Of a DNA stretch of 28,383 nucleotides, positions 6,973 through 24,216 are shown in pieces; the stretch's first letter is position 1; each line of letters starts with the position of its first letter. The notes under the pieces are model-generated. The model searched no databases. It saw only the letters and a list, made by a program, of their open reading frames with translations, and was not told where the DNA came from. This DNA is from an uncultured bacterium (GTDB lineage Bacteria; Eisenbacteria; RBG-16-71-46), in assembly GCA_964568385.1 (NCBI GenBank), contig CAZMQP010000003.1:1-28383 (forward strand), written 5' to 3'. A program made the position numbers and the translations under genes.

Positions 6973-8879
6973 TTGATCCCTCCCACCAGCTCATGGAACT
7001 TCGACAGCACCTTGTCCTTGGCGCTGGTCATCACCGTGCGGGCCGCCTCCTGCGCCTCGGACTTGAGCTTCGGCACCGAGAGCATGTCCTCGGGGATGGA
7101 CGCGTAGATGTAGTCGTCGCCCATCTTGGCGCTCCACGGCGTCGCCAGCTTCCCGTCGGTCTTGGAGTCCACGACGAGGCGGTACACGTACCCGCGCGCC
7201 TCGCGGTCCATGAAGATCTTGCGCGACACCAGCGCCTCGTTGCGGGCCGGGGAGATGCTGATGTTCTCCTCGACCTCCTCCCCCAGCTTGGGATAGTGGA
7301 TCTGCACCGTGATGCGCGTGATGCCGCTCGCCTTCATCGCCTCGAGGTCGGACTCCACTTCGATGGTGCGGGGCGCGATCGGCGCCGACAGCGTCACGCC
7401 CTCCCATCCGCCCTTGACCCACGCGGGCGTGGCGGGCCACACGCGGCCGCCGCGGAAGCTCCACTGGGTCTGGTACTCGTAGGCGTCGGGGTTCGAGTCC
7501 TCGCCGCGCGCGTAGGTCACCGTGGCGTTGATGCCCTTCTCGGCCACGAACTTCTGGTCGATGGTGACGCGGTCCTCGAACGGGTTCCCCGCACTGCGCT
7601 TCTTGCGCACGTTGATCGTGACGTAGTTGGCCTGCTGCTCGAACAGGTCCTTGGCGTCGAGGTCGAGGATGAAGTGGATGTCGCGGTGCTGGAAGAACGG
7701 ATCGTTGAGATTCACGGCGGCGACGCACTTTGGATTATCGCGCACGCCGTCGTACCACGAGCCGAGGTTGCCGGTGAGCGTGTGCGGCTTCTTGAACGCC
7801 AGCCGCGAGTTGAGCGAGATGACGCGCGACTTGCTCTGGTAGGCGGACCGGATCGCCGACCGGTTGAACGTGTAGCCCGACCCCTTGCGGGCGTCGGGGT
7901 CCTTGTCCTCGGCGGCGGCCGCGGGCGGGGGCGGCGCCGGCTCGGCGATCGAGTTCAGGAACAGCTGCAGGAAGGCCTCGCGCACCTTGGCCACGCGGTC
8001 GTCCGAGACCAGTTCGTCGAACTGGAGCTTGATGACCTGCTTCTCGACGAGGAAGTCGAACTGCGACTTCACCTCGTTGTAGCTGTACGAGTAGATGCCC
8101 GAGCAGCTCCAGAATCCGCACTTGGTGCCGGTGCGGGTCCGCGTGTACTGCGAGCTGAGCGTGGTGCTGTCCTTCTCGAGCTTGGACCAGTCCACCGTCA
8201 TCGTCGCCCGCACGGCGGGCGTGAGCACGGTGTAGGCGAAGTGGAGGTCGAGCGACACGTCGCTGATGGACCGCTGCCTCTCGAACGTCGCCGCCAGGAG
8301 CTGGGCCCCCTCCGACGACAGGCGCGCTGCGGCGGCGGCCTTGCCGCCCGGCACGAGCGGCGCCCGGCCCGAGTTGACCATGGCCGTGGTGAGCTTGTTG
8401 TCGGACATCGTGGCCGAGATGATCTGGAAGCTGCCCGACTCGCCGTGGGCCTCCATCGGCACGACGCCCATGAGCTCCGCCTTGGCATCCACCTTCTTGA
8501 GCTTCTCGGCGAGCTCGGTCTCCTGGGCCGGCGTCAGCCCCCACTCCATCAGGAAGTGCATGAGCCCGCCGTTGATGCCGCCCGCGTCGGCACGCGCCTC
8601 GGTGGTGAACTTGAGGAACAGGAACTCCGGCACGCCGTCCGCCCGCCGCGACAGGCGCAGGTTCGCGGGCAGGTAGTAGTACTGCTTGGTCTTCGCATCC
8701 CCGGTGGCGCCGGCGACGGCGATCAGCGTGATGGGCGTGTTGTCGCCGAGCGTGATCGTGAGCCGGTTCTCGTCGTCGAGCACCACGGCCCGCGCGGGCG
8801 CCGCCAGGTGCATCCCCATGACCGTCGTGACCACCGCCAGCGCCGCCCGTGCGGCCCTGCGGATCCGTGCCGCTCCCAT
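6969..8879 (-). CDS. g5: exported protein of the unnamed paralogue family, subtype B (636 aa)
   Basis: The track ORF starts at 9314, but its first 145 codons overlap g4 and the g4-g5 spacer. ATG 8879 has a strong SD (GGAGGGAGG) and opens a signal peptide (..HLAAPARA|V). An in-frame ATG at 8951 is an alternative start. Motifs QYYYLPANLRL, GVPEFLF, SGRAP, VNLNDPFFQHR, WSFRGG. Confidence 0.88.
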   Translation of the reverse strand: MGAARIRRAARAALAVVTTVMGMHLAAPARAVVLDDENRLTITLGDNTPITLIAVAGATGDAKTKQYYYLPANLRLSRRADGVPEFLFLKFTTEARADAGGINGGLMHFLMEWGLTPAQETELAEKLKKVDAKAELMGVVPMEAHGESGSFQIISATMSDNKLTTAMVNSGRAPLVPGGKAAAAARLSSEGAQLLAATFERQRSISDVSLDLHFAYTVLTPAVRATMTVDWSKLEKDSTTLSSQYTRTRTGTKCGFWSCSGIYSYSYNEVKSQFDFLVEKQVIKLQFDELVSDDRVAKVREAFLQLFLNSIAEPAPPPPAAAAEDKDPDARKGSGYTFNRSAIRSAYQSKSRVISLNSRLAFKKPHTLTGNLGSWYDGVRDNPKCVAAVNLNDPFFQHRDIHFILDLDAKDLFEQQANYVTINVRKKRSAGNPFEDRVTIDQKFVAEKGINATVTYARGEDSNPDAYEYQTQWSFRGGRVWPATPAWVKGGWEGVTLSAPIAPRTIEVESDLEAMKASGITRITVQIHYPKLGEEVEENISISPARNEALVSRKIFMDREARGYVYRLVVDSKTDGKLATPWSAKMGDDYIYASIPEDMLSVPKLKSEAQEAARTVMTSAKDKVLSKFHELVGGIK

Positions 8880-8901
8880 GTGATCGCCTCCCTCCACTCG
8901 G

Positions 8902-8919
8902 CCGGATCCGCGGATCCGG
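8902..8919. other. Perfect 18-bp palindrome CCGGATCCGCGGATCCGG in the g4-g5 spacer
   Basis: Read directly from the sequence; it lies just upstream of the g5 ribosome-binding site. Function unknown. Confidence 0.5.
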
Positions 8920-8947
8920 GAGAATCGTTGCACTGCCTCGAACGGCC

Positions 8948-10684
8948 TCATGGCAGCTCGTCCACGAAGACCAGCCCGCTCGACAGCTGCCGCTTCGCCG
9001 TCACCCGCTGCCCGCCCGCGAGCTGCCATGTCAGCATCACCTCGTAGGCGGGCTGGCCGAGCGGCAGCGTGATCTCCAGCTGCTTGCGGTCGAAGGGCTC
9101 GTCCGGCCGCACCACCATCTGGGGGCGGCGGCGCTCGCCGAAGAATGGGTAGTCGATCTCGACCACCACGGCGCGCACGCCGCGCGCGCGCAGGGCGTCG
9201 GGGTCGCCGGCGAGCTGGATGACATGGCGCTCGTAGGGCGCGAACAGGTCGATCATGGGCGCCTCCGAGCGGATCCAGTCCGTGGCATGCACGCCGCCGC
9301 CGCGGAAGCTCCACCGCGTCCGGTAGTCATAGCCCAGCCACGCCACGCGGTCCCGGTCATCGTTCCAGCCGTAGACCATGCGCAGCCCGGCCGTGGAGCC
9401 GCTGGCGTTGTGGCGGTCGAGCACGAGCTCGCGCAGCGTCTGCTCGCCGTTCGAGTGGGTCTTGCGCATCGTGACGGTGATGCTGTTGATGACGCTCTGC
9501 AGCTCGGGCAGCAGCGCGCCGTCCACGCCCACCTGCACCTCGCGCTGCTGGAACGCCGCATCCCCCAGGTTGACCGTGCGGAAGTGCCGCGGGTCCGAAC
9601 CGTGCGTCCGCTCGAAGTCGCCGAGGTTGAACGCGATCGAGTGATGCCGCTGCACCGAGGCACGGTGGTCGAACGTCATCACGCTCCGGCCCTCGGACCG
9701 GACGTCGCGGATCTGGTAGGCGAGCTCGGCGCCGTAGCCCAGCATCTTGCGGCTCGACATCGCGCTCCCCGAGCCGAACATCGTGCCGAGGGCGTCCATG
9801 AGCCCGCCCCGCTCGGCGGGCGGCACGCGCTCGGGTTCGACGGGCTTGAACAGCAGGTCGAGCAGGCGGCCGTACACCGTGTTCAGCAGCCCCTCCGTGA
9901 CGGGGTCGTTGCCCGCCGTGCGCAGCTCCACTGCCTGGGTGCGCCGCAGTTCGTCAATGGCGACGCCGATGTCCGCGCTCACGAAGTAGGCGGTGGCTCC
10001 CGCCGAGAACGTCTTGCTCTTGCGCACCTCGGACCAGTTCACCGTCAGGTCGGCGCGGTAGGCGTCGGTGAGGCCGGTGAAGGTGAGGTCGAAGAGCAGG
10101 GACACATCGGGCGTGGCCATCGCGAACGACTTGAGCAGCAGGGTGGCCCGCTCGGGATCGAGATCGAACGACAGCGCGAGGCGGTTGCCCTCGAGCACCG
10201 GCGCCCGGCCGGTGGCGAGCGCGTGCCGGGACGACGACTCGCGCCCCGGCTGCAGGACGGACGAGACGAGCGTGTAGCGGCCCTCGCTGCACACGATCGG
10301 GCCCCGCAGGCTGACGCGCGGGTTCCCGACCTGCTGGCGCAGGGCAGCGCCCGCCTCCTGCACCATCGCCGCTGGGGTCTCGAGCTCGACCAGGAACGTG
10401 AGCACGCCGCCGCCGCGGGCCTCGGTGATGCTCGAAGCGCTCGCGCTGTCGCCGCTCGTGTTGATGACGTAGCGCACGAACGAGAACTGCGGACGGCCCT
10501 GCTCGTCCTCGGCGAGCCGGACCGCCGCGGGCAGATGGACGTAGGTGAGGCTGTCGGTGGTGAGCGGGAAGCACCACAGCCCGCCCGCGCGCACGCCCCG
10601 GTCCACGAGCACCGGCTGGGCGAGCGCCGCCGGCGCGCACGCCAGCAGGACGCCGAGGCTGCAGGCGAGGGTGGTGCGCCTCAT
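8948..10684 (-). CDS. g4: exported protein of the unnamed paralogue family, subtype A (578 aa)
   Basis: ATGA overlap with the g3 stop. Signal peptide ..APAALA|Q, with a possible lipobox LLAC. Motifs TYVHLPAAVRL, GRPQFSFVRYV, TGRAP, VNLGDAAFQQR, WSFRGG and C-terminal VDELP. Confidence 0.9.
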   Translation of the reverse strand: MRRTTLACSLGVLLACAPAALAQPVLVDRGVRAGGLWCFPLTTDSLTYVHLPAAVRLAEDEQGRPQFSFVRYVINTSGDSASASSITEARGGGVLTFLVELETPAAMVQEAGAALRQQVGNPRVSLRGPIVCSEGRYTLVSSVLQPGRESSSRHALATGRAPVLEGNRLALSFDLDPERATLLLKSFAMATPDVSLLFDLTFTGLTDAYRADLTVNWSEVRKSKTFSAGATAYFVSADIGVAIDELRRTQAVELRTAGNDPVTEGLLNTVYGRLLDLLFKPVEPERVPPAERGGLMDALGTMFGSGSAMSSRKMLGYGAELAYQIRDVRSEGRSVMTFDHRASVQRHHSIAFNLGDFERTHGSDPRHFRTVNLGDAAFQQREVQVGVDGALLPELQSVINSITVTMRKTHSNGEQTLRELVLDRHNASGSTAGLRMVYGWNDDRDRVAWLGYDYRTRWSFRGGGVHATDWIRSEAPMIDLFAPYERHVIQLAGDPDALRARGVRAVVVEIDYPFFGERRRPQMVVRPDEPFDRKQLEITLPLGQPAYEVMLTWQLAGGQRVTAKRQLSSGLVFVDELP

Positions 10685-12510
10685 CGCGCCGCACCCCGTG
10701 CCGCGGGAGAGGGCGGGACCAGGAACAGGTAGTCCGACTCGAGCAGCGACAGCTTCTCCTCATGGCTCCCGCTCGCCGAGTGCCACGACACGCGGTACGC
10801 CACCGGCGAGTCGCGGTCCACGTAGAGCGCCACGCGCGTGGTCGGCGTGGCATCCGCCGCCCGCAGGGTGGCCTTGCGCTCTAGCTTGGGCTTGCCGGCC
10901 TGGAGGATGGCGAACTCGACGACGCCGGTGTTGACGCCCTGGGTGGCGAAGCCCTGCCGGTCGGACTCGATCTCGACGATCCGCTTGGTGAGCGGCGGGA
11001 CCAGCGAGATCGCCGCGTCGGAGCTCTTGATCCACTCCTCCTCCTTCGGCGGCACCGAAAGCGTCGGTCCGCCGCGCAGGCTCCAGCGCACCTGGTACTC
11101 GTACTGGGTCCAGTCCTTGCCCGTCAGGCCGAGGCGCGGGAACGCGATGGTGGCGGTGGTGCGGCCCGCCTCGAGATCGGCGCGGCTCAGCTGGATGGAC
11201 TTGGTGAACGCCGGACGGTCGGCGTAGGTCTTGCGGAAGCTCACCGAGACGAAGTTGATGGTCTCCTGGAACGCATCCAGGAAGTCGCCGTCGAGCTGGA
11301 AGTAGACCGGCCGGAACTCGAACGCCGCGTCGGCGAGATTCACGATGCGGAAGCAGCGGCTGTCCTCCGCCAGCTCCCGATAGAGCCCGCCCAGGTTGCC
11401 GGACGTGCTGACCGGCACGCGGATCGACGAGTTCTTGTTCAGGACGAGCGTGAACGTGCTCTGCCGGATGTCCTTGCGGTTCTTGAGCACCCACTGGTCG
11501 TCCGAGACGTAGTTCTGGTTGCCGCTGCCCGAGAACAGCTTGGACAGGAACCCCCGCGACTGCCGGCCCTGGAGCTGCCCGCGCTCGACGGCGACCTCGG
11601 TGGCGGGCACCTTCGACCAGCCGCTCGAGTCGTCGAACATGAGCGTGGTGAGCTTGTCGGTCACGAGCTGCAGGATCCCCGCCATGTCGTCGGACTTGAT
11701 CCCCAGCCCCGCGCTGCGATCGACCACGTCGATCTTGAGCGTGCCGTTGCGATGCAGCTGGTCCACGATGTCGCGCACCTGCCGGCGGGTGTAGCCCTTC
11801 TGCGCGTTCGCGATCTGGCTGAAGTGCTCGTAGACCGCCGAGACGTCGGCCGTGACGCGGGCGTTGTAGCCCTGCACCAGCGCCTCGTAGTAGCCGTGCA
11901 CCGAGACCGACACGTCCGAGGTGGGACCGGAGAGCGAGTTCCACAGCAGGGTCGCGCCCTGCGGCGAGAGGATGGCCGCGACCACGGCGCGCGAGCCGGG
12001 GGTGAACGGGGCGCGCCCCGACGCCACCACCGAGCGCGTGAAGCCCCCCTCGCCCTTGTTCGAGAGCACCGCCGAGACCACCTCGAACGAGCCGGTGCCC
12101 TCGACGCCGTCCTTGGTGGCCTGCATGAGCGGGACCGGGCCCATGATGCGGACGTTGCCCGCGCTCTTGCGCAGCTCCGCCTCCACTTTGGCGAGCCGGT
12201 CCTGCGGCAGCGTGAACTCGACCAGCGCGTGCAGGAGCCCGCCGCTCGTCCCCCCCTGCGCGTCCACGTACTTCAGGCACAGCAGCTCGTAACTGCCGTC
12301 CTCGCGCTGCGCGAGCCGCGGGTACTGGGGCACGTAGTAGTAGGCGGTCGGGTCGCCGGAGTCCTGCAGCAGCTGCACCCCGAGCACGACGCGCGAGCCC
12401 TGGTCGTAGTTCACGATCGCCCGGGCGGGGGCGGCGCTCAGGGACAGCGCGGCGCTCGCGACAAGCGCGGCGGTGCGGTACGCGTGCTCGATGCGGCGGA
12501 ACCGGATCAT
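10681..12510 (-). CDS. g3: exported protein of the unnamed paralogue family, subtype B (609 aa)
   Basis: Signal peptide ..SAAPARA|I. Motifs AYYYVPQYPRL, GGLLHALVEF, SGRAP, VNLADAAFEFR, WSLRGG. Confidence 0.9.
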   Translation of the reverse strand: MIRFRRIEHAYRTAALVASAALSLSAAPARAIVNYDQGSRVVLGVQLLQDSGDPTAYYYVPQYPRLAQREDGSYELLCLKYVDAQGGTSGGLLHALVEFTLPQDRLAKVEAELRKSAGNVRIMGPVPLMQATKDGVEGTGSFEVVSAVLSNKGEGGFTRSVVASGRAPFTPGSRAVVAAILSPQGATLLWNSLSGPTSDVSVSVHGYYEALVQGYNARVTADVSAVYEHFSQIANAQKGYTRRQVRDIVDQLHRNGTLKIDVVDRSAGLGIKSDDMAGILQLVTDKLTTLMFDDSSGWSKVPATEVAVERGQLQGRQSRGFLSKLFSGSGNQNYVSDDQWVLKNRKDIRQSTFTLVLNKNSSIRVPVSTSGNLGGLYRELAEDSRCFRIVNLADAAFEFRPVYFQLDGDFLDAFQETINFVSVSFRKTYADRPAFTKSIQLSRADLEAGRTTATIAFPRLGLTGKDWTQYEYQVRWSLRGGPTLSVPPKEEEWIKSSDAAISLVPPLTKRIVEIESDRQGFATQGVNTGVVEFAILQAGKPKLERKATLRAADATPTTRVALYVDRDSPVAYRVSWHSASGSHEEKLSLLESDYLFLVPPSPAARGAAR

Positions 12511-12535
12511 CGTGGAGGATCCCCCTGGCGGCGCC

Positions 12536-13723
12536 TCAGCGGATGGGACGGACCCCGGTGGCGGCCGCCGGCGCGGGCGTGGTCAGGTCGAGGACGTCCA
12601 GCCAGTCACGACCCGCCCGCCAGCCGCCCTGCGTCGAACTCCCGTCGGGCCGGACCTCCGCCACCCGGTAGCGGTAGGGTCGGTCCAGCCGAACGGCGAC
12701 CGGGAAGCGAAGGCTCGTCTGGTATACGTCCGGATGAGCCCGGGCGAACACGGCCTGCAGCCGCACCGGGCGGCCGGCCACGGACTCGGCCTCCACTTCG
12801 ACCTGCTTCTCGTACAGATCGGGCCGCCGGTTGTCGCGGAAGTCGTAGCAGTACACGTCCATGGCCGCGTAGCCGGTCCGCGTCCCGGCGTCGAGGTCGA
12901 CGCGCCGCATCAGGTCCGGGAAGCGGCGGGCATCCACGTGGATCGGGATGACCCCCGCGGCGACCACCCGCCGGAGCATCGAGTCGGCGCCGGTGGCGCC
13001 CGCCGCGGACTCCGCGGCCAGTTCCCGGCCGAGCGCCTCGGCCAGCATCGGCGGCGCGTCCACGAGGCCCCACGGCTCACGCGCCACCCGCCCGTCGGCC
13101 ACCACCGCATAGGCGAGGCTCATGGACAGCAGCCCCTGCTCGAAGGCGGCGCGCAGCGCCTGGGCGGTGAGCGAGTCCAGCCCCACGCTGAACACGCGCT
13201 CCCTCCAGTAGCCCTCGCCCACCGGGCCCTCGTGCTCGCGGCTCGCGAGGAGGCGTCCTCCCGGCACTCCATGGCGGACGGTGTCGGCGGAGGCGCCGAT
13301 CGAGATGAAGAGCAGTGCGGCGCTCAACCGGCGGATGGGCAGCGGCCGCAGCTCGGCGGCGCGCCCCGCTGGCCCGAGCTGCCGGGCACAGGACGCCAGC
13401 ACCTCGGCCGGGTGGGCCGGCAGCTCCACGCGGATCGTCAGCAGGCTCTTGTGGAGCGTGAGCCCGCGATCGCGCGCCAGGGCGTTCCCGGTGTAGCGCA
13501 TGTCCACGAAGCTCAGATCGGGCCGGCCATCCTCGGCCGTGACGAGCCGCATCTCCGCGGGTGCGTAGTGGAAGAGGTCGGCCCGCTGGTCGTCCGCGAA
13601 GACGGTCACCCCGGCCACCACCCGGCGCGAGGCCAGGTCGGGCACGGCGCCGGCCGGCGCGGCGAGCACGAGCAGGAGCAGCGCGAGCCGGGCGCTCCGG
13701 CGAATCCGTGAGCAGCCGCGCAC
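12536..13723 (-). CDS. g2: exported, shortened and divergent member of the same family (395 aa)
   Basis: GTG start 3 nt after the g1 stop. Signal peptide ..LLLLVLAAPAGA|V. Motifs VFADDQRADLFHYAPAEMRL..DGRPDLSF, ELRPLPI and RRVDLD, then one C-terminal beta-rich unit (PYRYRV..DG..W). Confidence 0.82.
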   Translation of the reverse strand: MRGCSRIRRSARLALLLLVLAAPAGAVPDLASRRVVAGVTVFADDQRADLFHYAPAEMRLVTAEDGRPDLSFVDMRYTGNALARDRGLTLHKSLLTIRVELPAHPAEVLASCARQLGPAGRAAELRPLPIRRLSAALLFISIGASADTVRHGVPGGRLLASREHEGPVGEGYWRERVFSVGLDSLTAQALRAAFEQGLLSMSLAYAVVADGRVAREPWGLVDAPPMLAEALGRELAAESAAGATGADSMLRRVVAAGVIPIHVDARRFPDLMRRVDLDAGTRTGYAAMDVYCYDFRDNRRPDLYEKQVEVEAESVAGRPVRLQAVFARAHPDVYQTSLRFPVAVRLDRPYRYRVAEVRPDGSSTQGGWRAGRDWLDVLDLTTPAPAAATGVRPIR

Positions 13724-13726
13724 GGC

Positions 13727-15820
13727 TCAGCGCTCCAGCCGCGTGCCCAGCGACTGCTCCAGCTGGCGGCGCCCGATCGGCATCCACGACTTGTCGCCGG
13801 GCACCCACGCGGCGTCGCCACCCACGACGGCGCCGTCCTTCATGGTGAGCGAGAGCCGGAACTCGAACAGCGGCCCGGAGCGGCCCGCCGCCCGCTCCAG
13901 CCCGAACACCGGCCCGAGCGTGAAGTCCTTGCCGTCCGCATCCACGACGAACGAGCGCGTCCGGGTGGCTTCGCCCTGGGGATCGAAGTGCCTCGAGCGC
14001 ACCTCCACCAAGATGTGCTGGGCGCCCGATTCGGCCAGCGGCGTCAGCGAGCGGAACGTGAACTGCGACGAGCCGGCGGCCGACACGCCCCCGGTCAGAC
14101 CGGCGATGGCGTTCGCGCCGCACTCCCGGCACGACGCGTCCACGGTGTAGTCGATCCAGATCTTCTGGGCCTGTGCGTCGATCCAGAACGGCACCGAGGC
14201 GGCGCTCCAGCGCACCTGGCCGCCCGGCGGGACCCGCGTCTCCCCCAGGCTCCACGAGTTCACGACCGGCGGGGCGCCGTCGGCGACGCGCAGGGCGTGC
14301 AGGTAGCGCAATGTGACCGGGTAGGGCGTCGGGTTCTTCCAGCCGGTGCGCTCCCACCGGAACGGGCCGAACGTGCCGTAGTCCGCCAGCCGCATGTGGA
14401 TGGGCACCACCCTCGGCCCGAGGCCGTTGCCCGTCGGGCGGTAGATCACGCTGCCGCTGATGCCGACGTTCTCGATCAGCGCCTCCTGGATGAAGTCCTT
14501 GGTGCGCTCGTCGGTGATCCACGACACGTCGAGCTGACCGGCGACATCGGTGAGTCCGTTGACCGAGATGCGGTTCGCCGGAACGCTGTAGCGGCCCAGG
14601 TCGTCCGACAGCGAGACGGTGAGCGAGTCGATCGGCAGCGGCCGCAGTTCACGGAAGGGCATGCCCCGCGCCTTGGCGTGCGCCCGCACGATCTGGACCG
14701 CGACGCCCAGGTCGCGCGCCCCGATGCCGCCATCGAGGCGCGCCGACATGAGCACCTCGCCCGCGGCCCCCGGGGCCGCGGCGGAGTAGACGCTCCGGAG
14801 TGCGTAGCCGTCCGCCTGGTCCCACTTGAGCGCGTAGTCGTGGGGCAGGAAGTAGAAGATCCCCGAGGACGGCTCCTGGTCCGGATAGACCTCCGGGTAC
14901 ACGTTGAGCACGCGGGTCAGGTCGAGTCGGATGTCCTCGGTGCGGACATCGGCGAACGTCGGGAGCGGCAGGGCGCCCGGCCCGCGGGCGCCGCGGCTCG
15001 CGTCCGCCGGGGTGAGCCCCAGCGTGACCGAACGCGCCTCGAGCAGCCGCGCGGTGGGCAGCGCGCGCGTGGCCGTGCCGGCCTGGGTCTCGGCCGGCGG
15101 CTTGGTGACGGGCAGGACCGACCGCGTGGCCGTGATGGCCCGCGTCCGCGGGGCGGTCGTGGCCGGCGCCGGCGCGGGCGGCGAGGTGGATGCGGAGGGT
15201 GCGATGCGCACGGTGCTCGCCGGCACCACCATCGACGGCGTGGGCCCGAGCTCGGCGGTCCGGCCGACCGGCTGCGGTGCGATCGTGACCACGAAGCCCT
15301 CGCCGGAGGCGGCCGTCCTCGACCACTCCTTGCCCAGCCGGAAGAGGCGCGTGTAGCTCGCGGTGCGGCGCCCGGCGGCGGCGACGCTGACCCTCAGCAG
15401 CGCGGAGGGCGGCGGCACCACGCCGGGCTCCGACTCGAAGGTGAGCGTCAGTTCGCCCGACCCCTCGGCGATCGAGGCGGGCTCCGGCATGACGACCCCC
15501 GCTTGCCGCCGCCGGTCCGCATTCAGGAGTTCGCCCCACAGCCGCGCCCCCAGCAGGCCGTCATGGCTGACCCGCACCACCAGGCGGCGCGGCGCGTCCT
15601 CGTCCACGACCGCTCGGGTCACATGGCCCTTGAGCTCCCCTCCGAGCAGGCTGCCCGCGAGCGACTCGAGACCCGAGCGCACCTCATCCGCGGGCGGCAG
15701 TTCCCTGCCCTCGAGCGCGCCGGGGGCCGGCGCCGGCCGCGCCGGGACCGGCGCGAGCGAGCACATCGCGAGCACCAGGGCGAGGGACGCCGCCCATGGG
15801 CGGAGGGACCGAGGTCGCAT
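13727..15820 (-). CDS. g1: exported protein with an N-terminal beta-rich domain, a Pro/Thr/Ala linker and a divergent copy of the family domain (697 aa)
   Basis: ATG 15820 (codon 24 of the track ORF) has GGAG upstream and opens a signal peptide MRPRSLRPWAASLALVLAMCSLAPVPA. The C-terminal half has VYPDQEPSSGIFYFLPHDYAL, ELRPLPI and a terminal beta-rich unit (FEFRL..DG..W). Confidence 0.8.
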   Translation of the reverse strand: MRPRSLRPWAASLALVLAMCSLAPVPARPAPAPGALEGRELPPADEVRSGLESLAGSLLGGELKGHVTRAVVDEDAPRRLVVRVSHDGLLGARLWGELLNADRRRQAGVVMPEPASIAEGSGELTLTFESEPGVVPPPSALLRVSVAAAGRRTASYTRLFRLGKEWSRTAASGEGFVVTIAPQPVGRTAELGPTPSMVVPASTVRIAPSASTSPPAPAPATTAPRTRAITATRSVLPVTKPPAETQAGTATRALPTARLLEARSVTLGLTPADASRGARGPGALPLPTFADVRTEDIRLDLTRVLNVYPEVYPDQEPSSGIFYFLPHDYALKWDQADGYALRSVYSAAAPGAAGEVLMSARLDGGIGARDLGVAVQIVRAHAKARGMPFRELRPLPIDSLTVSLSDDLGRYSVPANRISVNGLTDVAGQLDVSWITDERTKDFIQEALIENVGISGSVIYRPTGNGLGPRVVPIHMRLADYGTFGPFRWERTGWKNPTPYPVTLRYLHALRVADGAPPVVNSWSLGETRVPPGGQVRWSAASVPFWIDAQAQKIWIDYTVDASCRECGANAIAGLTGGVSAAGSSQFTFRSLTPLAESGAQHILVEVRSRHFDPQGEATRTRSFVVDADGKDFTLGPVFGLERAAGRSGPLFEFRLSLTMKDGAVVGGDAAWVPGDKSWMPIGRRQLEQSLGTRLER

Positions 15821-16020
15821 GCACGGACTCCGAGCGCACCGCGCGTTCGAGGGGCGGCGGCGCCACGCGCCGGACGAGCCCCACGGCATGCGCTCGCCTC
15901 GGTCGCTGCACCGCCTCGAACCCCCTTACGTCCGAGCCGGGCGAACCGAACACGGGGCCGGGCGGGCCGGTGGCGCAGGGGGGCGCGCCCCACCCGCGCC
16001 GCCCGCGCCGCGATCCGCGG

Positions 16021-19906: not shown

Positions 19907-21106
19907 ATGAACACGACCCCGCCCGACCTCGCACGCCTGCGCATCGACCGCAGCGAGCCCCCGCCCGGCCCGCGCGGAGGCACCCGCTTCGCCGTCCCGG
20001 CCGGGATCGGGGTGGTGCTGATCGTGCTCGCGGTCGTGCTGTGGCCGCGCCTCTTCCCGGGCGCGATCGAGGTGCGCACGGCGGTCGCCGCCGCGACCGG
20101 CGGCGCCGCGTCGCCCGGCGGCGGCATCAGCGCCAGCGGCTACGTGGTGGCCCGCACCAAGGCCTCGGTGTCGGCCAAGGTGCCGGGGCGGCTCGCCTAC
20201 CTCGGCGTCGGCGAGGGCTCGGTCGTGCGCCGCGGCGAGGTGATCGCGCGGCTCGAGAACGACGACTTCCGCGCGGCGGTGGACGCCGCCGAGGCGCGGC
20301 TCCGCCAGCTGACGATCGAGCGCGACCAGGCCGAGCGCGACCTCGAGCGGGCGACCCGGCTCCACGAGCGCCGCCTGCTCTCGGACGCCGAGCTCGAGAC
20401 CCAGTCGGCGCGCCTGCGCTCGCTCGCCGCGCAGGCGGACGCCGCGCGCGCACAGCTCGCGCTGAGCCGCGCCAGCCTCGACAACACGATCGTGACCGCC
20501 CCGTTCGACGGCACCGTCCTGCGCAAGGACGCCGAGGTGGGCGAGTTCGTCGCCCCCTCGACCGCGGGCGGCGGGCTCACCCGCAGCGCGATCGCCACGA
20601 TGGCCGATCTGCGCACGCTCGAGGTCGAGGTGGACGTGAACGAGGCCTACATCTCGCGCATCCGGAACGGGCAGTCGTGCCGCATCACGCTCGACGCCTA
20701 CCCCGACACCTCGTTCGCGGGTCGCGTGCGCCAGGTGGTGCCGACCGCCGACCGGCAGAAGGCGACCGTGCAGGTCAAGGTCTCGATCCTCGACCGCGAC
20801 CGCCGCATCCTGCCCGAGATGGGCGCCAAGGTGGAGTTCGCGCCGCCGGGCGACTCCGAGTCCGAGACCGGGCCCGTCCCGCCGCGCCGCGTGCTGGCCC
20901 CGGCGGCGGCGGTGGTGGGCAGCGGGAGCGACGCCCGGGTGTGGGTGGTGTCCGGCGGGCGCGCCGCGGCGCGAACGGTCGAGACCGGCGTCGCGCGCGG
21001 GGAGCAGGTCGAGATCCGTTCCGGGCTGAGCGGCGGGGAGAGCGTCATCCTGTCGCCGCCGCCCGGGCTCGAGGACGGGGCGCGCGTGCGCGTCCGCGGC
21101 AGCTGA
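19907..21106 (+). CDS. Efflux periplasmic adaptor / membrane fusion protein (MacA/HlyD-like)
   Basis: N-terminal TM anchor, ASGYVVAR, lipoyl-like halves flanking a coiled coil, IVTAPFDGTVL, LEVEVDVNE. Confidence 0.93.
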   Translation: MNTTPPDLARLRIDRSEPPPGPRGGTRFAVPAGIGVVLIVLAVVLWPRLFPGAIEVRTAVAAATGGAASPGGGISASGYVVARTKASVSAKVPGRLAYLGVGEGSVVRRGEVIARLENDDFRAAVDAAEARLRQLTIERDQAERDLERATRLHERRLLSDAELETQSARLRSLAAQADAARAQLALSRASLDNTIVTAPFDGTVLRKDAEVGEFVAPSTAGGGLTRSAIATMADLRTLEVEVDVNEAYISRIRNGQSCRITLDAYPDTSFAGRVRQVVPTADRQKATVQVKVSILDRDRRILPEMGAKVEFAPPGDSESETGPVPPRRVLAPAAAVVGSGSDARVWVVSGGRAAARTVETGVARGEQVEIRSGLSGGESVILSPPPGLEDGARVRVRGS

Positions 21107-21155
21107 CGGAACCCAGGACCCCGCCCGCCGGCGGGGAACGGCGAAGGAGGGCTCG

Positions 21156-21827
21156 ATGGCGCTGGTGACGGTGCGGGACGTGCACAAGGAGTATCGCCGC
21201 GACACCCAGGCGGTCCCGGTGCTGGCCGGGCTCACGCTGGAGATCGCCGAGGGCGACTTCGTCGCCCTGATGGGTCCGTCCGGCAGCGGCAAGACCACGC
21301 TGCTCAACCTGATCGGCGGCATCGACCAGCCGACCGCGGGCGAGGTCGAGGTCGGCGGCAGGTCGATCGGGCGCCTCAAGCCGCGCGAGCTGGCGCGCTG
21401 GCGCTCGCGGCACATCGGCTACATCTTCCAGCTCTACAACCTGATCCCGGTGCTGACCGCGATCCAGAACGTCGAGCTGCCGCTGCTGCTCCAGAAGATG
21501 AGCGGCAAGGAGCGGGTCGAGCGCGCCACCCACGCGCTCGAGAACGTCGGCCTCAAGGACCGGCTCAAGCACTACCCGCGCCAGCTCTCGGGCGGGCAGG
21601 AGCAGCGGGTGGCGATCGCGCGGGCGCTGGTGAGCGACCCGACGCTGCTGCTCGCGGACGAGCCGACCGGCGACCTCGACCGCAAGTCGGGCGAGGAGAT
21701 CCTCGGCCTGCTCGAGCGGCTGAACAAGGAGTTCAAGAAGACGATCGTCATGGTCACGCACGACCCGCACGCCGCCGAGCGCGCGCATCGCGTGCTGCAC
21801 CTCGACAAGGGCGTGCTGTCCAACTGA
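21156..21827 (+). CDS. ABC transporter ATP-binding protein (MacB/LolD-like)
   Basis: Walker [10 protein letters not shown], signature LSGGQEQR, Walker [11 protein letters not shown]-loop VTHD. Confidence 0.97.
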
Positions 21828-21840
21828 GCGCGGGGAGCCC

Positions 21841-23037
21841 ATGAGACTGTTCTCGCTGGTCCTCGTCAACCTCGGCCGCAACAAGCTGCGCACCACGCTC
21901 ACCCTGATGAGCGTGGTCGTCGCCCTGTTCCTGTTCTGCGCGCTGCGCGGGGTGCTCGACACGCTGGCCGCCTCGATCGAGGTCGGCAGCGAGGCGCGGC
22001 TCGTCACCCGCAACGCGATCTCGCTCATCTTCCCGCTCCCGCTCTCCTACCGGGAGCGGCTGGCGGCGATCCCGGGCGTCAAGGCGGTGAGCTACGCGAA
22101 CTGGTTCGGCGGCCGCGACCCCAACGACCCCGGAAACTTCTTCGCCCAGTTCGCCTGCGACGCCGAGACCTACCTGCCGATCTACGACGCCGACGTCGAG
22201 ATCGTCGCCGGCGACTCGTCGGCGGTGCCCCTGCCGGTGCCGGCCGGGATGGACCCCCGGCTGGCGATGTTCCTGAGCGAGCGCGACGCCTGCGTGGTCG
22301 GCCGGAGCCTGTTCGAGCGCATGGGATGGAAGATGGGCCAGAAGGTGCCGATCTCGGGCACGATCTTCCCCGGCACCTGGACCTTCACGATCCGCGCGGT
22401 CTACCGGGCGAAGGACCCGGCGTTCGGCGAGGAGTCCATGCTGTTCCACTGGAAGTACCTGAGCGAGCGCGGCATGGGCGGCCAGGGCATGGTGGGCTGG
22501 TACGTCCTCCAGCTCGCCGAGCCGGAGCGCGCGGGCGAGATCACCGAGGCGGTGGACGCGCTCTACGCGAACTCGGCCGCCTCGACCCACACCGAGACCG
22601 AACGGGCGTTCCAGGCCGGGTTCGTCAGCATGTACGGCAACGTCCCGTTCCTGATCGGCGTGATCGGGATCGCGGTGGTGTTCGCGATCCTGCTGGTGGC
22701 GGCGAACACGATGATGATGGCGACCCGCGAGCGGACCGCCGAGTTCGGCGTGATGAAGACGCTCGGCTTCACGGACGGCACCCTGTTCCGCCTGGTGCTC
22801 ATCGAGGCCGCCATCCTCACCTTCGGCGGCGGCACGCTGGGGGCGCTGCTCGCCAAGTTCGTCATCGAGGGATCGAAGTTCAACGCCGGCGGGTTCCTGC
22901 CGCCGATGACCGTCAGCTGGAACTCGGTCGCCATGGGCGTCGGCATCGCCGTGCTCATGGGCGCCACCAGCGGCATCATCCCGGCCCTGCAGGCGTCGCG
23001 CCTGCGCATCGTCGACGCGCTGCGGCGCGTCGAGTAG
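21841..23037 (+). CDS. ABC transporter permease, FtsX/MacB family
   Basis: RNKLRTTLT + TM1, large extracytoplasmic domain, then three TMs with [15 protein letters not shown]. Confidence 0.93.
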
Positions 23038-23046
23038 GGAGCGACC

Positions 23047-24216
23047 ATGGCCATCCCGATCTCCTACAACCTGCGCAACGTCACCCAGCGCCCGCTCTCG
23101 ACCCTCGCCACCACGCTCGGGATCGCGCTCGTCGTGGCGATCCTGGTCGGCACCTTCGCGCTGGCGTCCGGCTTCCAGGCGGCGCTGGTCGAGACCGGCT
23201 CGCCCGAGAACCTGATCGTCCTCCGCACCGGGGCCGACTCCGAGATCTCGAGCGGGATCTCGCGGGACGCCGCCAACATCCTGCGCGCGCTGCCCGACGT
23301 CGCCACCGGCCCCGACGGCCGCCCGCTCGCCAGCGCCGAGATGGTGGTGCTCATCAACCAGCCGCGGCTGGGGCAGAGCGGCTCGTCGAACGTGACCGTG
23401 CGCGGCATCGACGCCGAGGGACTGCGGCTGCGCGACCAGGTGCGCATCGTCGAGGGCCGCATGTTCGCCCCCGGCACCGACGAGATCATCGTCGCGCGGC
23501 GCATGGCGCGCCGGTTCGCGAGCTGCGGGATCGGCGACCGGCTGCGCTTCGGACAGCGGGACTTCACCGTCGTGGGCCACTTCGCCGCCGGCGGTTCGGG
23601 GTTCGACTCGGAGGTCTGGGGCGACAACGCGGTCCTGATGCCGGCGCTCAACCGCGAGAGCGCGTTCCAGAGCGTGACGCTGCGCATGCGCGACACCACG
23701 CGCTTCGCGGCGCTCAAGCAGCAACTGGAGGGCGACCCCCGCCTCGGGGTCCAGGTGCGGACGGAGCGCGGCTGGTACAGCGAGCAGTCGCAGGCGATGG
23801 GCATCGTCATCCGGGTCGGCGGCATCTTCATCACCCTGATCATGGCGGTCGGGGCCATCTTCGGCGCCATGAACACGATGTTCGCCGCCGTCCAGCAGCG
23901 CACGCGCGAGATCGCCGTCCTGCTGGTCCTCGGCTTCACGCCGTTCGCGATCACCCTCTCGTTCCTGATCGAGTCGGTGCTGATCGCCCTGATCGGCGGG
24001 ATCGCCGGCTGCGTCCTCGCGCTGCCGATCAACGGCATCACGACCAGCACCACCAACTGGGCGTCGTTCAGCGAGATCGCGTTCGCGTTCCGCGTGACGC
24101 CGACCGGGATGGTGATCGGCCTCGTCTTCGCCGCCGTGCTGGGCGTGGTGGGCGGGTTCCTGCCCGCGCTGCGCGCCGGCCGCCAGTCGCTCGCCGCCAG
24201 CCTGCGCGCGGCGTAG
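23047..24216 (+). CDS. ABC transporter permease, FtsX/MacB family (second subunit)
   Basis: TM1, extracytoplasmic domain, QRTREIAVLLVLGF, C-terminal TM with LPALRA. Confidence 0.93.
   Translation: MAIPISYNLRNVTQRPLSTLATTLGIALVVAILVGTFALASGFQAALVETGSPENLIVLRTGADSEISSGISRDAANILRALPDVATGPDGRPLASAEMVVLINQPRLGQSGSSNVTVRGIDAEGLRLRDQVRIVEGRMFAPGTDEIIVARRMARRFASCGIGDRLRFGQRDFTVVGHFAAGGSGFDSEVWGDNAVLMPALNRESAFQSVTLRMRDTTRFAALKQQLEGDPRLGVQVRTERGWYSEQSQAMGIVIRVGGIFITLIMAVGAIFGAMNTMFAAVQQRTREIAVLLVLGFTPFAITLSFLIESVLIALIGGIAGCVLALPINGITTSTTNWASFSEIAFAFRVTPTGMVIGLVFAAVLGVVGGFLPALRAGRQSLAASLRAA

Follow-up and report, generated by a model that had tools for sequence, protein, structure and literature searches.

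The question raised by this locus is what a short, cysteine-bracketed beta-hairpin does in one exported protein of a family of paralogues. The window, by which we mean the whole stretch of DNA analysed, comprises 28,383 nucleotides (about 72% G+C) of contig CAZMQP010000003.1 from GenBank assembly GCA_964568385.1, an uncultured bacterium of the Eisenbacteria lineage RBG-16-71-46, and the protein concerned is the product of the gene g5. An earlier note on this DNA had singled out a segment of g5 as a candidate membrane-inserting or target-binding element, and had suggested that it may be a pre-stem hairpin of the kind that builds the barrel in aerolysin or in the cholesterol-dependent cytolysins (CDC) and their MACPF relatives. 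The broader description is still the best reading of the segment; the pre-stem suggestion, we argue below, is not supported. Our favoured answer, to which we assign slightly less than an even chance, is that the hairpin, or finger, of g5 is an interfacial (monotopic) membrane anchor resembling a fusion loop.

Residues 230-269 of g5, DWSKLEKDSTTLSSQYTRTRTGTKCGFWSCSGIYSYSYNE, are encoded at window positions 8073-8192, within which the stretch from KDSTT to YSYN occupies 8076-8174. The cysteine-bracketed aromatic segment is therefore present exactly as described, and AlphaFold2 models it as a beta-hairpin, with one strand at residues 249-254 (RTGTKC), a turn at 255-258 (GFWS), and a second strand at 259-263 (CSGIY). 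Given these boundaries, Cys254 and Cys259 bracket the four-residue aromatic turn. The full-length model, based on an alignment of 105 sequences, has a mean predicted local distance difference test score (pLDDT) of 92.1 and a predicted template-modelling score of 0.70, and the three ten-residue blocks across 241-270 average 77, 86, and 85. It divides g5 into a signal peptide (residues 1-31, ending in APARA with VV following, as read from the translation), an N-domain (32-380) with two very long strands at 208-230 and 351-371, two beta-sandwiches (381-498 and 499-595), and a C-terminal helix (597-632). The parts of the segment are listed in Table 1. When the six paralogues are aligned, a 17-residue insertion of g5 falls at this segment. 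It has no counterpart in g3, g4, or g6, whose own short segments lie where the earlier note had placed them, and gB stops before the site.

The chemistry of the finger is conserved more strictly than its sequence, and beyond what chance would explain. Among 109 orthologues of g5 (56-92% identity), every one has a hydrophobic or aromatic tip of 4-7 residues between an arm rich in Thr, Arg, Lys, and Gly and an arm rich in Ser and Tyr. No orthologue departs from W231, Y245, E269, or L277, very few depart from D230 or S232, and the descending arm ends in a nearly invariant YSYSY, in which Y263, Y265, and Y267 form a ladder. In composition, the first arm is 24% T, 13% R, 12% G, 12% S, and 10% K, with a mean net charge of +2.0; the tip is 25% F, 14% W, and 13% L; and the second arm is 29% S and 25% Y. 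The tip itself comes in discrete types: CGFWSC, C-SSFWMFSS-C, CFIIFC, CVLLAC, CLLWWC, FLFFSW, FWVFSW, and FLGITI. When all 6-mers of the mature protein are ranked on the Wimley-White scale, it falls within the three most interface-seeking in 80 of the 109 orthologues. A hydrophobic tip on a hairpin turn is what marks the membrane-anchoring loops, a class defined by function and not by homology, and it is found here both in the model, where GFWS lies between the two strands, and across the whole orthologue set.

The two cysteines behave as a unit. The segment contains two of them in 55 orthologues, none in 54, and a single one in no case; on a tree built without the segment, these states require at least five changes. 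Since every subunit carries a type-I Sec signal peptide, the protein should reach an oxidising compartment, and the combination of a two-or-none count, repeated switching, and Sec export argues for an optional Cys254-Cys259 disulfide staple that would be useful and not obligatory. Metal binding by the C-x4-C motif and lanthionine-type crosslinks were also considered, and from sequence alone both are unlikely for a two-cysteine loop in a Sec-exported protein of 636 residues.

The same site can be followed beyond these orthologues, and 80 loci yielded 83 different loops of the g5 type. Trp triplets are found in some lineages (GHWWWKK, GYWWWKD; compare GHWFWKH), Tenacibaculum has a Lys-flanked amphipathic stretch, KKSRGGLFGGVADALFGKK, and distant homologues have glycine-zipper-like hydrophobic stretches of 22-34 residues, such as GVVGGIVGGPIGAAIGWFG and GDIAAGAAIGAGVGSLFFGVGAIPGAVIGGMMAA; other lineages place helical inserts of 60-90 residues here. 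Loop length alone ranges from roughly 10 to more than 100 residues among g5-type homologues. This large variation, together with a pLDDT below that of the surroundings, would be in keeping with an exposed loop. The mean net charge is +2.0 for loops with a hydrophobic tip, compared with -1.6 for loops without one, and proteins that bind anionic bilayers typically show an aromatic core flanked by basic residues.

A site whose length can vary from a few residues to beyond 100 might be thought a structurally tolerated variable loop, without any dedicated function. We consider this decidedly unlikely, because the orthologue group preserves the hydrophobic tip, the coupled cysteine pair, Y245, and the YSYSY ladder, and because unrelated sequences converge at the site on a hydrophobic core with basic flanks. 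Such convergence, in which some of the solutions resemble re-entrant membrane segments, favours a non-specific hydrophobic partner, for example an anionic bilayer, over a lock-and-key pocket.

The case for a membrane anchor rests on several such lines of evidence: the hydrophobic residues sit exactly at the modelled hairpin turn; the tip stays hydrophobic or aromatic while its sequence and length change; cysteines are gained and lost in pairs in a Sec-exported protein; the Trp triplets, the Lys-flanked amphipathic stretch, and the glycine-zipper-like stretches are chemically convergent solutions at one site; the charge follows the tip; and the setting, discussed below, would suit an extracellular, cell-targeting complex, with variable gA modules, proteases, and caspase-like fusions. 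If the finger is indeed an anchor, it would stand out from the N-domain of the g5-type subunit into solvent, with the Thr/Arg/Lys-rich ascending arm and the Ser/Tyr-rich descending arm presenting the hydrophobic tip. In the present protein the G-F-W-S tip would be closed by the Cys254-Cys259 disulfide, formed after Sec export. The aromatic tip would dip into one leaflet of the bilayer, while the flanking basic residues and the tyrosine ladder would sit in the anionic head-group region. On this account g5 would be the membrane-contact subunit of a heteromeric secreted complex, gA-gB-g3-g4-g5-g6, to which gA would supply the targeting modules.

It is important to separate such an anchor from a true transmembrane element, in which the segment and its flanking helices (231-244 and 267-279) would refold into a beta-hairpin lining an oligomeric barrel. 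Some features of g5 point in that direction: the segment is rich in Ser and Thr, it follows a 23-residue strand (208-230) and precedes further strands, and the short helices on either side could in principle unfurl. The arms, however, have the wrong character. In aerolysin and the ETX-MTX2 family, the criterion for a pre-stem is strict hydrophobic/polar alternation in both arms, over about 2 x 10 residues or more. The TRTRT and YSYSY alternation to which the earlier note drew attention is real, but it is polar/basic in one arm and polar/tyrosine in the other. Over 90 distinct orthologue segments, the two faces of the first arm have mean Kyte-Doolittle values of -1.6 and -1.5, and those of the second -0.7 and -1.0; any arm face exceeds 1.0 in only 6% of the segments, and residues 231-279 as a whole offer no alternating hydrophobic face. 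The modelled strands, at 5-6 residues, are also too short to cross a bilayer. Moreover, the four paralogous segments cannot line up into a shared barrel, a possibility that the earlier note had proposed to check, since g3, g4, and g6 are without the insertion and gB ends before the site; the tip is itself missing from about a third of g5-type loops.

Searches by fold and by profile bear on the same point. The structural comparison with aerolysin, MACPF/CDC, and gasdermin folds that had been proposed gave little: when the N-domain alone was submitted to Foldseek against the PDB, there was no match at E<0.01 (the best, at 1.7e-2, was to EF-G), and no aerolysin, MACPF/CDC, or gasdermin chain appeared among the best 50. 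With the whole model, Foldseek returns Ig/FN3-type matches to the C-terminal sandwiches and, ranked below them, marginal rows for PFO, SLO, ILY, and the complement membrane attack complex (MAC), with E from 1e-3 to 4e-3, probability 0.12-0.25, and TM about 0.1. These CDC and MAC rows might be counted in favour of a pore-forming relative; we reject them as evidence, because the N-domain on its own gives no such match. Sequence and profile searches of PDB chains found nothing for g5 or for its full-length profile (A2), an N-domain profile (A4) reached three PDB chains at E about 1.2, the Thiol_cytolysin, MACPF, and gasdermin profiles gave no g5 match at E<=0.1, and a Foldseek search of BFVD with the N-domain model gave no match. 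The N-domain may therefore be a new fold, with the qualification that parts of its stand-alone model are of low confidence. Taken together, the polar faces, the short strands, the absence from paralogues, the dispensable tip, and the lack of a fold or profile match leave the pre-stem inference without support, and we regard a transmembrane role of this kind as very improbable.

Four observations weigh against the membrane anchor itself. First, the CGFWSC tip is invariant inside the closest clade, which a specific protein partner would also explain. Second, when the N-domain is modelled alone, residues 237-271 fall below a pLDDT of 50 with their secondary structure unchanged; a different alignment was used for that model, so that either the hairpin of the monomer may rest on the C-terminal domains, or the drop may reflect the changed alignment. 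Third, 30 of the 83 surveyed loops, mostly from Chitinophagia, Saprospiria, and Bacteroidales, are short, acidic, and without a hydrophobic tip, from which it follows that the finger is dispensable in many lineages and is not a core part of the family mechanism. Fourth, the glycine-zipper inserts match families of membrane segments only below threshold (DUF6861 at 9.6e-5, with 22 bits against a cut-off of 28; also DUF3482, DUF1269, C19orf12, and FUN14).

The first two of these observations are what one would expect if the finger were an inter-subunit clasp, the alternative offered in the earlier note, whose tip would plug a pocket in a neighbouring paralogue, be it g4, g6, or an adjacent g5, and hold the assembly together without ever touching lipid. 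A tip that is invariant within the closest clade and of discrete type between clades is typical of co-evolving interfaces, the confidence of the hairpin may depend on the presence of the remaining protein, and the fixed order of the six paralogous genes implies a defined hetero-oligomer. A lock-and-key contact should not, however, tolerate exchange of a four-residue turn for Trp triplets, for an 11-residue amphipathic stretch, for glycine-rich hydrophobic stretches of 22-34 residues, or for acidic loops, and these swaps occur while the remainder of g5 stays 40-65% identical. Nor would a buried plug be expected to pair its hydrophobic core so consistently with basic flanks. We consider a clasp somewhat unlikely.

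Table 1. Coordinates of the g5 finger, of other features of g5, and of the operon around it; positions are those of the window unless a locus handle precedes them.
Feature	g5 residues	Position	Strand	Basis or remark
DWS anchor and two short helices before the hairpin, DWSKLEKDSTTLSSQ	230-244	8148..8192	(-)	DSSP helices 231-236 and 238-244
Ascending polar, basic arm YTRTRTGTK	245-253	8121..8147	(-)	modelled strand 249-254
Hydrophobic/aromatic turn CGFWSC within the Cys pair	254-259	8103..8120	(-)	turn 255-258; putative disulfide
Descending Ser/Tyr arm SGIYSYSYN, tyrosine ladder	260-268	8076..8102	(-)	modelled strand 259-263
Closing conserved helix EVKSQFDFLVE, (E/D/Q)-(V/I)...L anchor	269-279	8043..8075	(-)	helix 267-279 in model
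Short counterpart in g4, KTFSAGATAYFVSADI		9968..10015	(-)	no insertion; alignment
Short counterpart in g6, KAFGAGLASSFLAAEV		6247..6294	(-)	no insertion; alignment
Short counterpart in g3, HFSQIANAQKGYTRRQV		11776..11826	(-)	no insertion; alignment
g5, exported protein of 636 residues		6969..8879	(-)	translation; start most plausibly MGAARIRR
g5 N-domain	32-380	7740-8786
Pro/Ala-rich linker of g5, AEPAPPPPAAAAEDKDPDARKG	312-335	7874-7945		block 321-330 has mean pLDDT 54
Cys385, invariant third Cys of mature g5	385	7725..7727	(-)	orthologue alignment
C-terminal amphipathic helix tail of g5	596-636	6972..7094	(-)	helix 603-621 in AlphaFold2 model
Host operon, six exported paralogues		4783..15889	(-)	open reading frames, synteny in 80 loci, signal peptides
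gA		13727-15889	(-)	open reading frame
gB		12536-13723	(-)	open reading frame
g3		10681-12510	(-)	open reading frame
g4		8948-10684	(-)	open reading frame
g6		4783-6972	(-)	open reading frame
g7		3360-4754	(-)	open reading frame
g8		2-3358	(-)	open reading frame
MacAB/DevCA-like exporter		19907-24216	(+)	HlyD-type adaptor, ABC ATPase, two FtsX-type permeases
Module-bearing gA homologues		L024:2805-5228, L023:3249-5252, L033:2739-5168, L012:2814-5231, L076:16134-18485, L047:18330-20765, L057:18161-20545

Two traits set g5-type subunits apart from the other paralogue types, which have neither: the long segment discussed above and a C-terminal helix tail of about 40-50 residues, with the consensus ...AK.AA....SAK.KVLDKF.ELLGG. 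The tail has a median length of 42 residues in 81 sequences with a long segment, as against 5 residues in 21 sequences with a short, paralogue-type segment. The idea that it serves as a specific cap for the hydrophobic tip was rejected, since g5-type proteins keep the tail whether the loop is hydrophobic, polar, or acidic. Elsewhere in g5, Cys385 would have no intramolecular partner if Cys254 and Cys259 pair with each other. Its counterpart in g3 is Cys386 (about 11353-11355), and among the paralogues only g5 and g3 have such an invariant cysteine, which in both stands 4 residues before the VNL motif. As a speculation, these two type-B paralogues could be joined by an inter-subunit disulfide between Cys385 and Cys386. 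The Pro/Ala-rich linker of g5 is a possible protease-sensitive hinge, and at the matching site g6 has a coiled-coil insert of about 180 residues.

The operon to which g5 belongs is widespread. A word-seeded search found 759 homologues of g5, and an exhaustive phmmer search found 807 clusters at 50% identity; all those with a name are called 'hypothetical protein', and the closest named ones come from metagenome-assembled genomes (MAGs) of Candidatus Eisenbacteria. The family is always met as an operon encoding six exported paralogues, and the order gA-gB-g3-g4-g5-g6 is kept in 80 loci from at least eight phyla. Cultured carriers are Flavobacteriia and other Bacteroidota (among them Tenacibaculum skagerrakense, Aquimarina, Flavivirga, Muriicola, Hyunsoonleella, and Neolewinella), and the MAGs bear the labels Eisenbacteria, Acidobacteriota, Verrucomicrobiota, Armatimonadota, delta- and gamma-Proteobacteria, and Spirochaetales. 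Profile searches of Pfam, NCBIfam, PADLOC, and PHROGs gave no match for g3-g6, gA, or gB, a search of the literature on DUF7452 and on such a system found nothing relevant beyond CDC-like toxins, and a search for expression data located the gene only in DNA metagenome runs. Within the libraries and literature searched, the family and its operon thus appear to be undescribed. None of the subunits has a lipobox, and anchoring as a lipoprotein was rejected.

The arrangement varies in some lineages. In loci of Flavobacteriia, gA and gB follow g6, and there is in addition a short g5-like gene. This extra gene of about 230 codons, which occurs just upstream of g5 in many Bacteroidota loci (for example L076:10007-10699 and L048:8460-9176), corresponds to the N-terminal third of a g5-like subunit. 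It was considered as a supplier of the missing hydrophobic element in Flavobacteriia and rejected, since it encodes a truncated paralogue, the N-terminal part only. Two full g5-type genes and two g6-type genes occur in several loci of Saprospiria and Chitinophagia. With regard to the neighbours, a gene of 464-508 codons without a family match follows g6 here (g7) and in the distant loci L001, L019, L024, and L048, its sequence being poorly conserved. The product of g8 contains CARDB, and the gene occurs for the most part in loci that bear the Eisenbacteria label or closely resemble those that do. The exporter, 4 kb from the operon, is probably unrelated to it, since it is missing from L001, the sole other locus with annotated flanks.

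The accessory content of these loci suggests what the complex may be for. Ahead of the family core, homologues of gA carry N-terminal binding modules that can be exchanged: Ricin-B lectin repeats occur in Aquimarina, Muriicola, and Flavivirga, PAN in a MAG of Gallionellaceae, and DUF7452, repeated three times, in Tenacibaculum, Emticicia, and Lewinella. The gA product looks like a targeting subunit; in the window, its N-terminal part is beta-rich and matched no profile. In Tenacibaculum the g7 position is taken by a fusion of an astacin to a papain-like Peptidase_C70 (L076:14657-16111), an Acidobacteriota MAG has an InhA-like M6 peptidase of 1680 residues upstream of the operon (L001:1-2648), and fusions to a caspase-like Peptidase_C14 domain occur within the family (P0124, P0201), one of them including an FGE-sulfatase as well. 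These features would be in keeping with a secreted complex that binds a target and is possibly activated by proteolysis, and a subunit able to grip membranes would make sense within it.

If gA adapts to its targets by exchanging lectin-type modules, the finger of g5 might be adapting in the same manner, as a hypervariable specificity loop for a protein or glycan on the target-cell surface, or for a hydrophobic substrate, diversifying by lineage. The length and chemistry of the site are indeed highly variable across the family, and aromatic residues, Tyr/Ser, and Arg are common in loops that bind glycans and proteins. Aliphatic tips such as CFIIFC, CVLLAC, and FLGITI would be poor glycan binders, however, as would the glycine-zipper stretches, and targeting has apparently already been delegated to gA. 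We therefore judge a specificity loop unlikely.

Returning to the membrane anchor, a more ambitious proposal can be built upon it, which we regard as possible but doubtful. The finger would dock an undescribed secreted machine of the membrane-attack type, as its first-contact anchor; gA would direct the machine to a foreign cell by means of its exchangeable modules, the reduced paralogues gA and gB would initiate assembly, and the g3-, g4-, and g6-type subunits together with a protease would complete or activate it. If this is true, bacteria would possess a counterpart of the stepwise assembly of complement, built on an N-domain whose fold has no relation to those of MACPF/CDC, aerolysin, or gasdermin. 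We regard the operon as a more important and more novel object than the finger, whose chemistry offers the clearest hint at the function of the complex. Should the finger prove to be a membrane anchor, the operon would be a strong candidate for a new multi-component class of membrane-targeting systems in microbial antagonism or predation.

How does this locus compare with systems that are already known? At the level of the operon, the relevant comparisons are with complement MAC and with CDC-like toxins. In MAC and in the two-component CDC-like toxins of Bacteroidota (PMC11169675, PMC11952106), homologous paralogues are encoded together or act together. The analogy to MAC and to these toxins is one of organisation only: a division of labour among subunits for targeting or initiation, for the first anchor, and for polymerisation, along with proteolytic activation. 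The present operon differs in having no MACPF/CDC fold or profile, and in its make-up of an accessory gene and six paralogues whose order is fixed.

At the level of the segment, the aerolysin pre-stem and the transmembrane hairpins (TMH1/2) of MACPF/CDC resemble the finger in being Ser/Thr-rich insertions between long beta-strands with a hydrophobic tip. They differ from it in the polar faces of its arms, in its strands of 5-6 residues, and in its absence from paralogues and from many orthologues. Compared with the aerolysin/ETX-MTX2 group, g5 departs in the alternation and length of the arms, in fold and profile, and in that the hairpin is not carried by every would-be barrel protomer; compared with MACPF/CDC, it has neither the bent four-stranded sheet or profile nor helical clusters that are amphipathic in beta register. 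Gasdermin is a cytosolic protein released by cleavage of its inhibitory C-terminus, whereas all subunits here carry Sec signal peptides, and no gasdermin fold was matched. Hairpin peptides of the tachyplesin, arenicin, and thanatin type, which are surface-active on anionic membranes, share with the finger a short hairpin of Arg/Lys and aromatic residues, with a disulfide staple that in g5 is putative. This resemblance is chemical only: the g5 hairpin is an internal insertion in a folded protein of 636 residues, with one staple at the turn and a much lower charge density.

The closest parallels in mechanism are with anchoring loops that grip a membrane without crossing it. In CDC, the Trp-rich undecapeptide and loops L1-L3 of domain 4 dock the protomer before the barrel forms, as does the beta1-beta2 loop with its basic patches in the gasdermin N-domain. 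Like the finger, these loops have aromatic tips (with a Cys in the CDC case) and basic residues nearby; unlike it, the CDC loops belong to a C-terminal Ig-like domain, and the N-domain that bears the finger matches neither the CDC nor the gasdermin fold. The fusion loop of class II fusogens is a short loop at the tip of a hairpin, in which Trp, Phe, Leu, and Gly abound and which is often fixed by disulfides; it enters only the outer leaflet and anchors a beta-rich ectodomain. The g5 finger would be like those of flavivirus E, alphavirus E1, and the HAP2/EFF-1 type in mechanism only: the Foldseek searches of the PDB and BFVD gave no relation in fold or sequence, g5 is a Sec-exported subunit from a bacterial operon of several paralogues, and trimeric refolding and fusion form no part of the mechanism proposed for it. 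Interfacial anchors, from fusion loops to the CDC domain-4 loops and the hydrophobic loop of gasdermin, nevertheless share one design, in which a hydrophobic aromatic tip is carried on a polar, basic stalk and may be held by a disulfide. The finger of g5, with its tyrosine ladder, would be a new example of this known membrane-gripping device.

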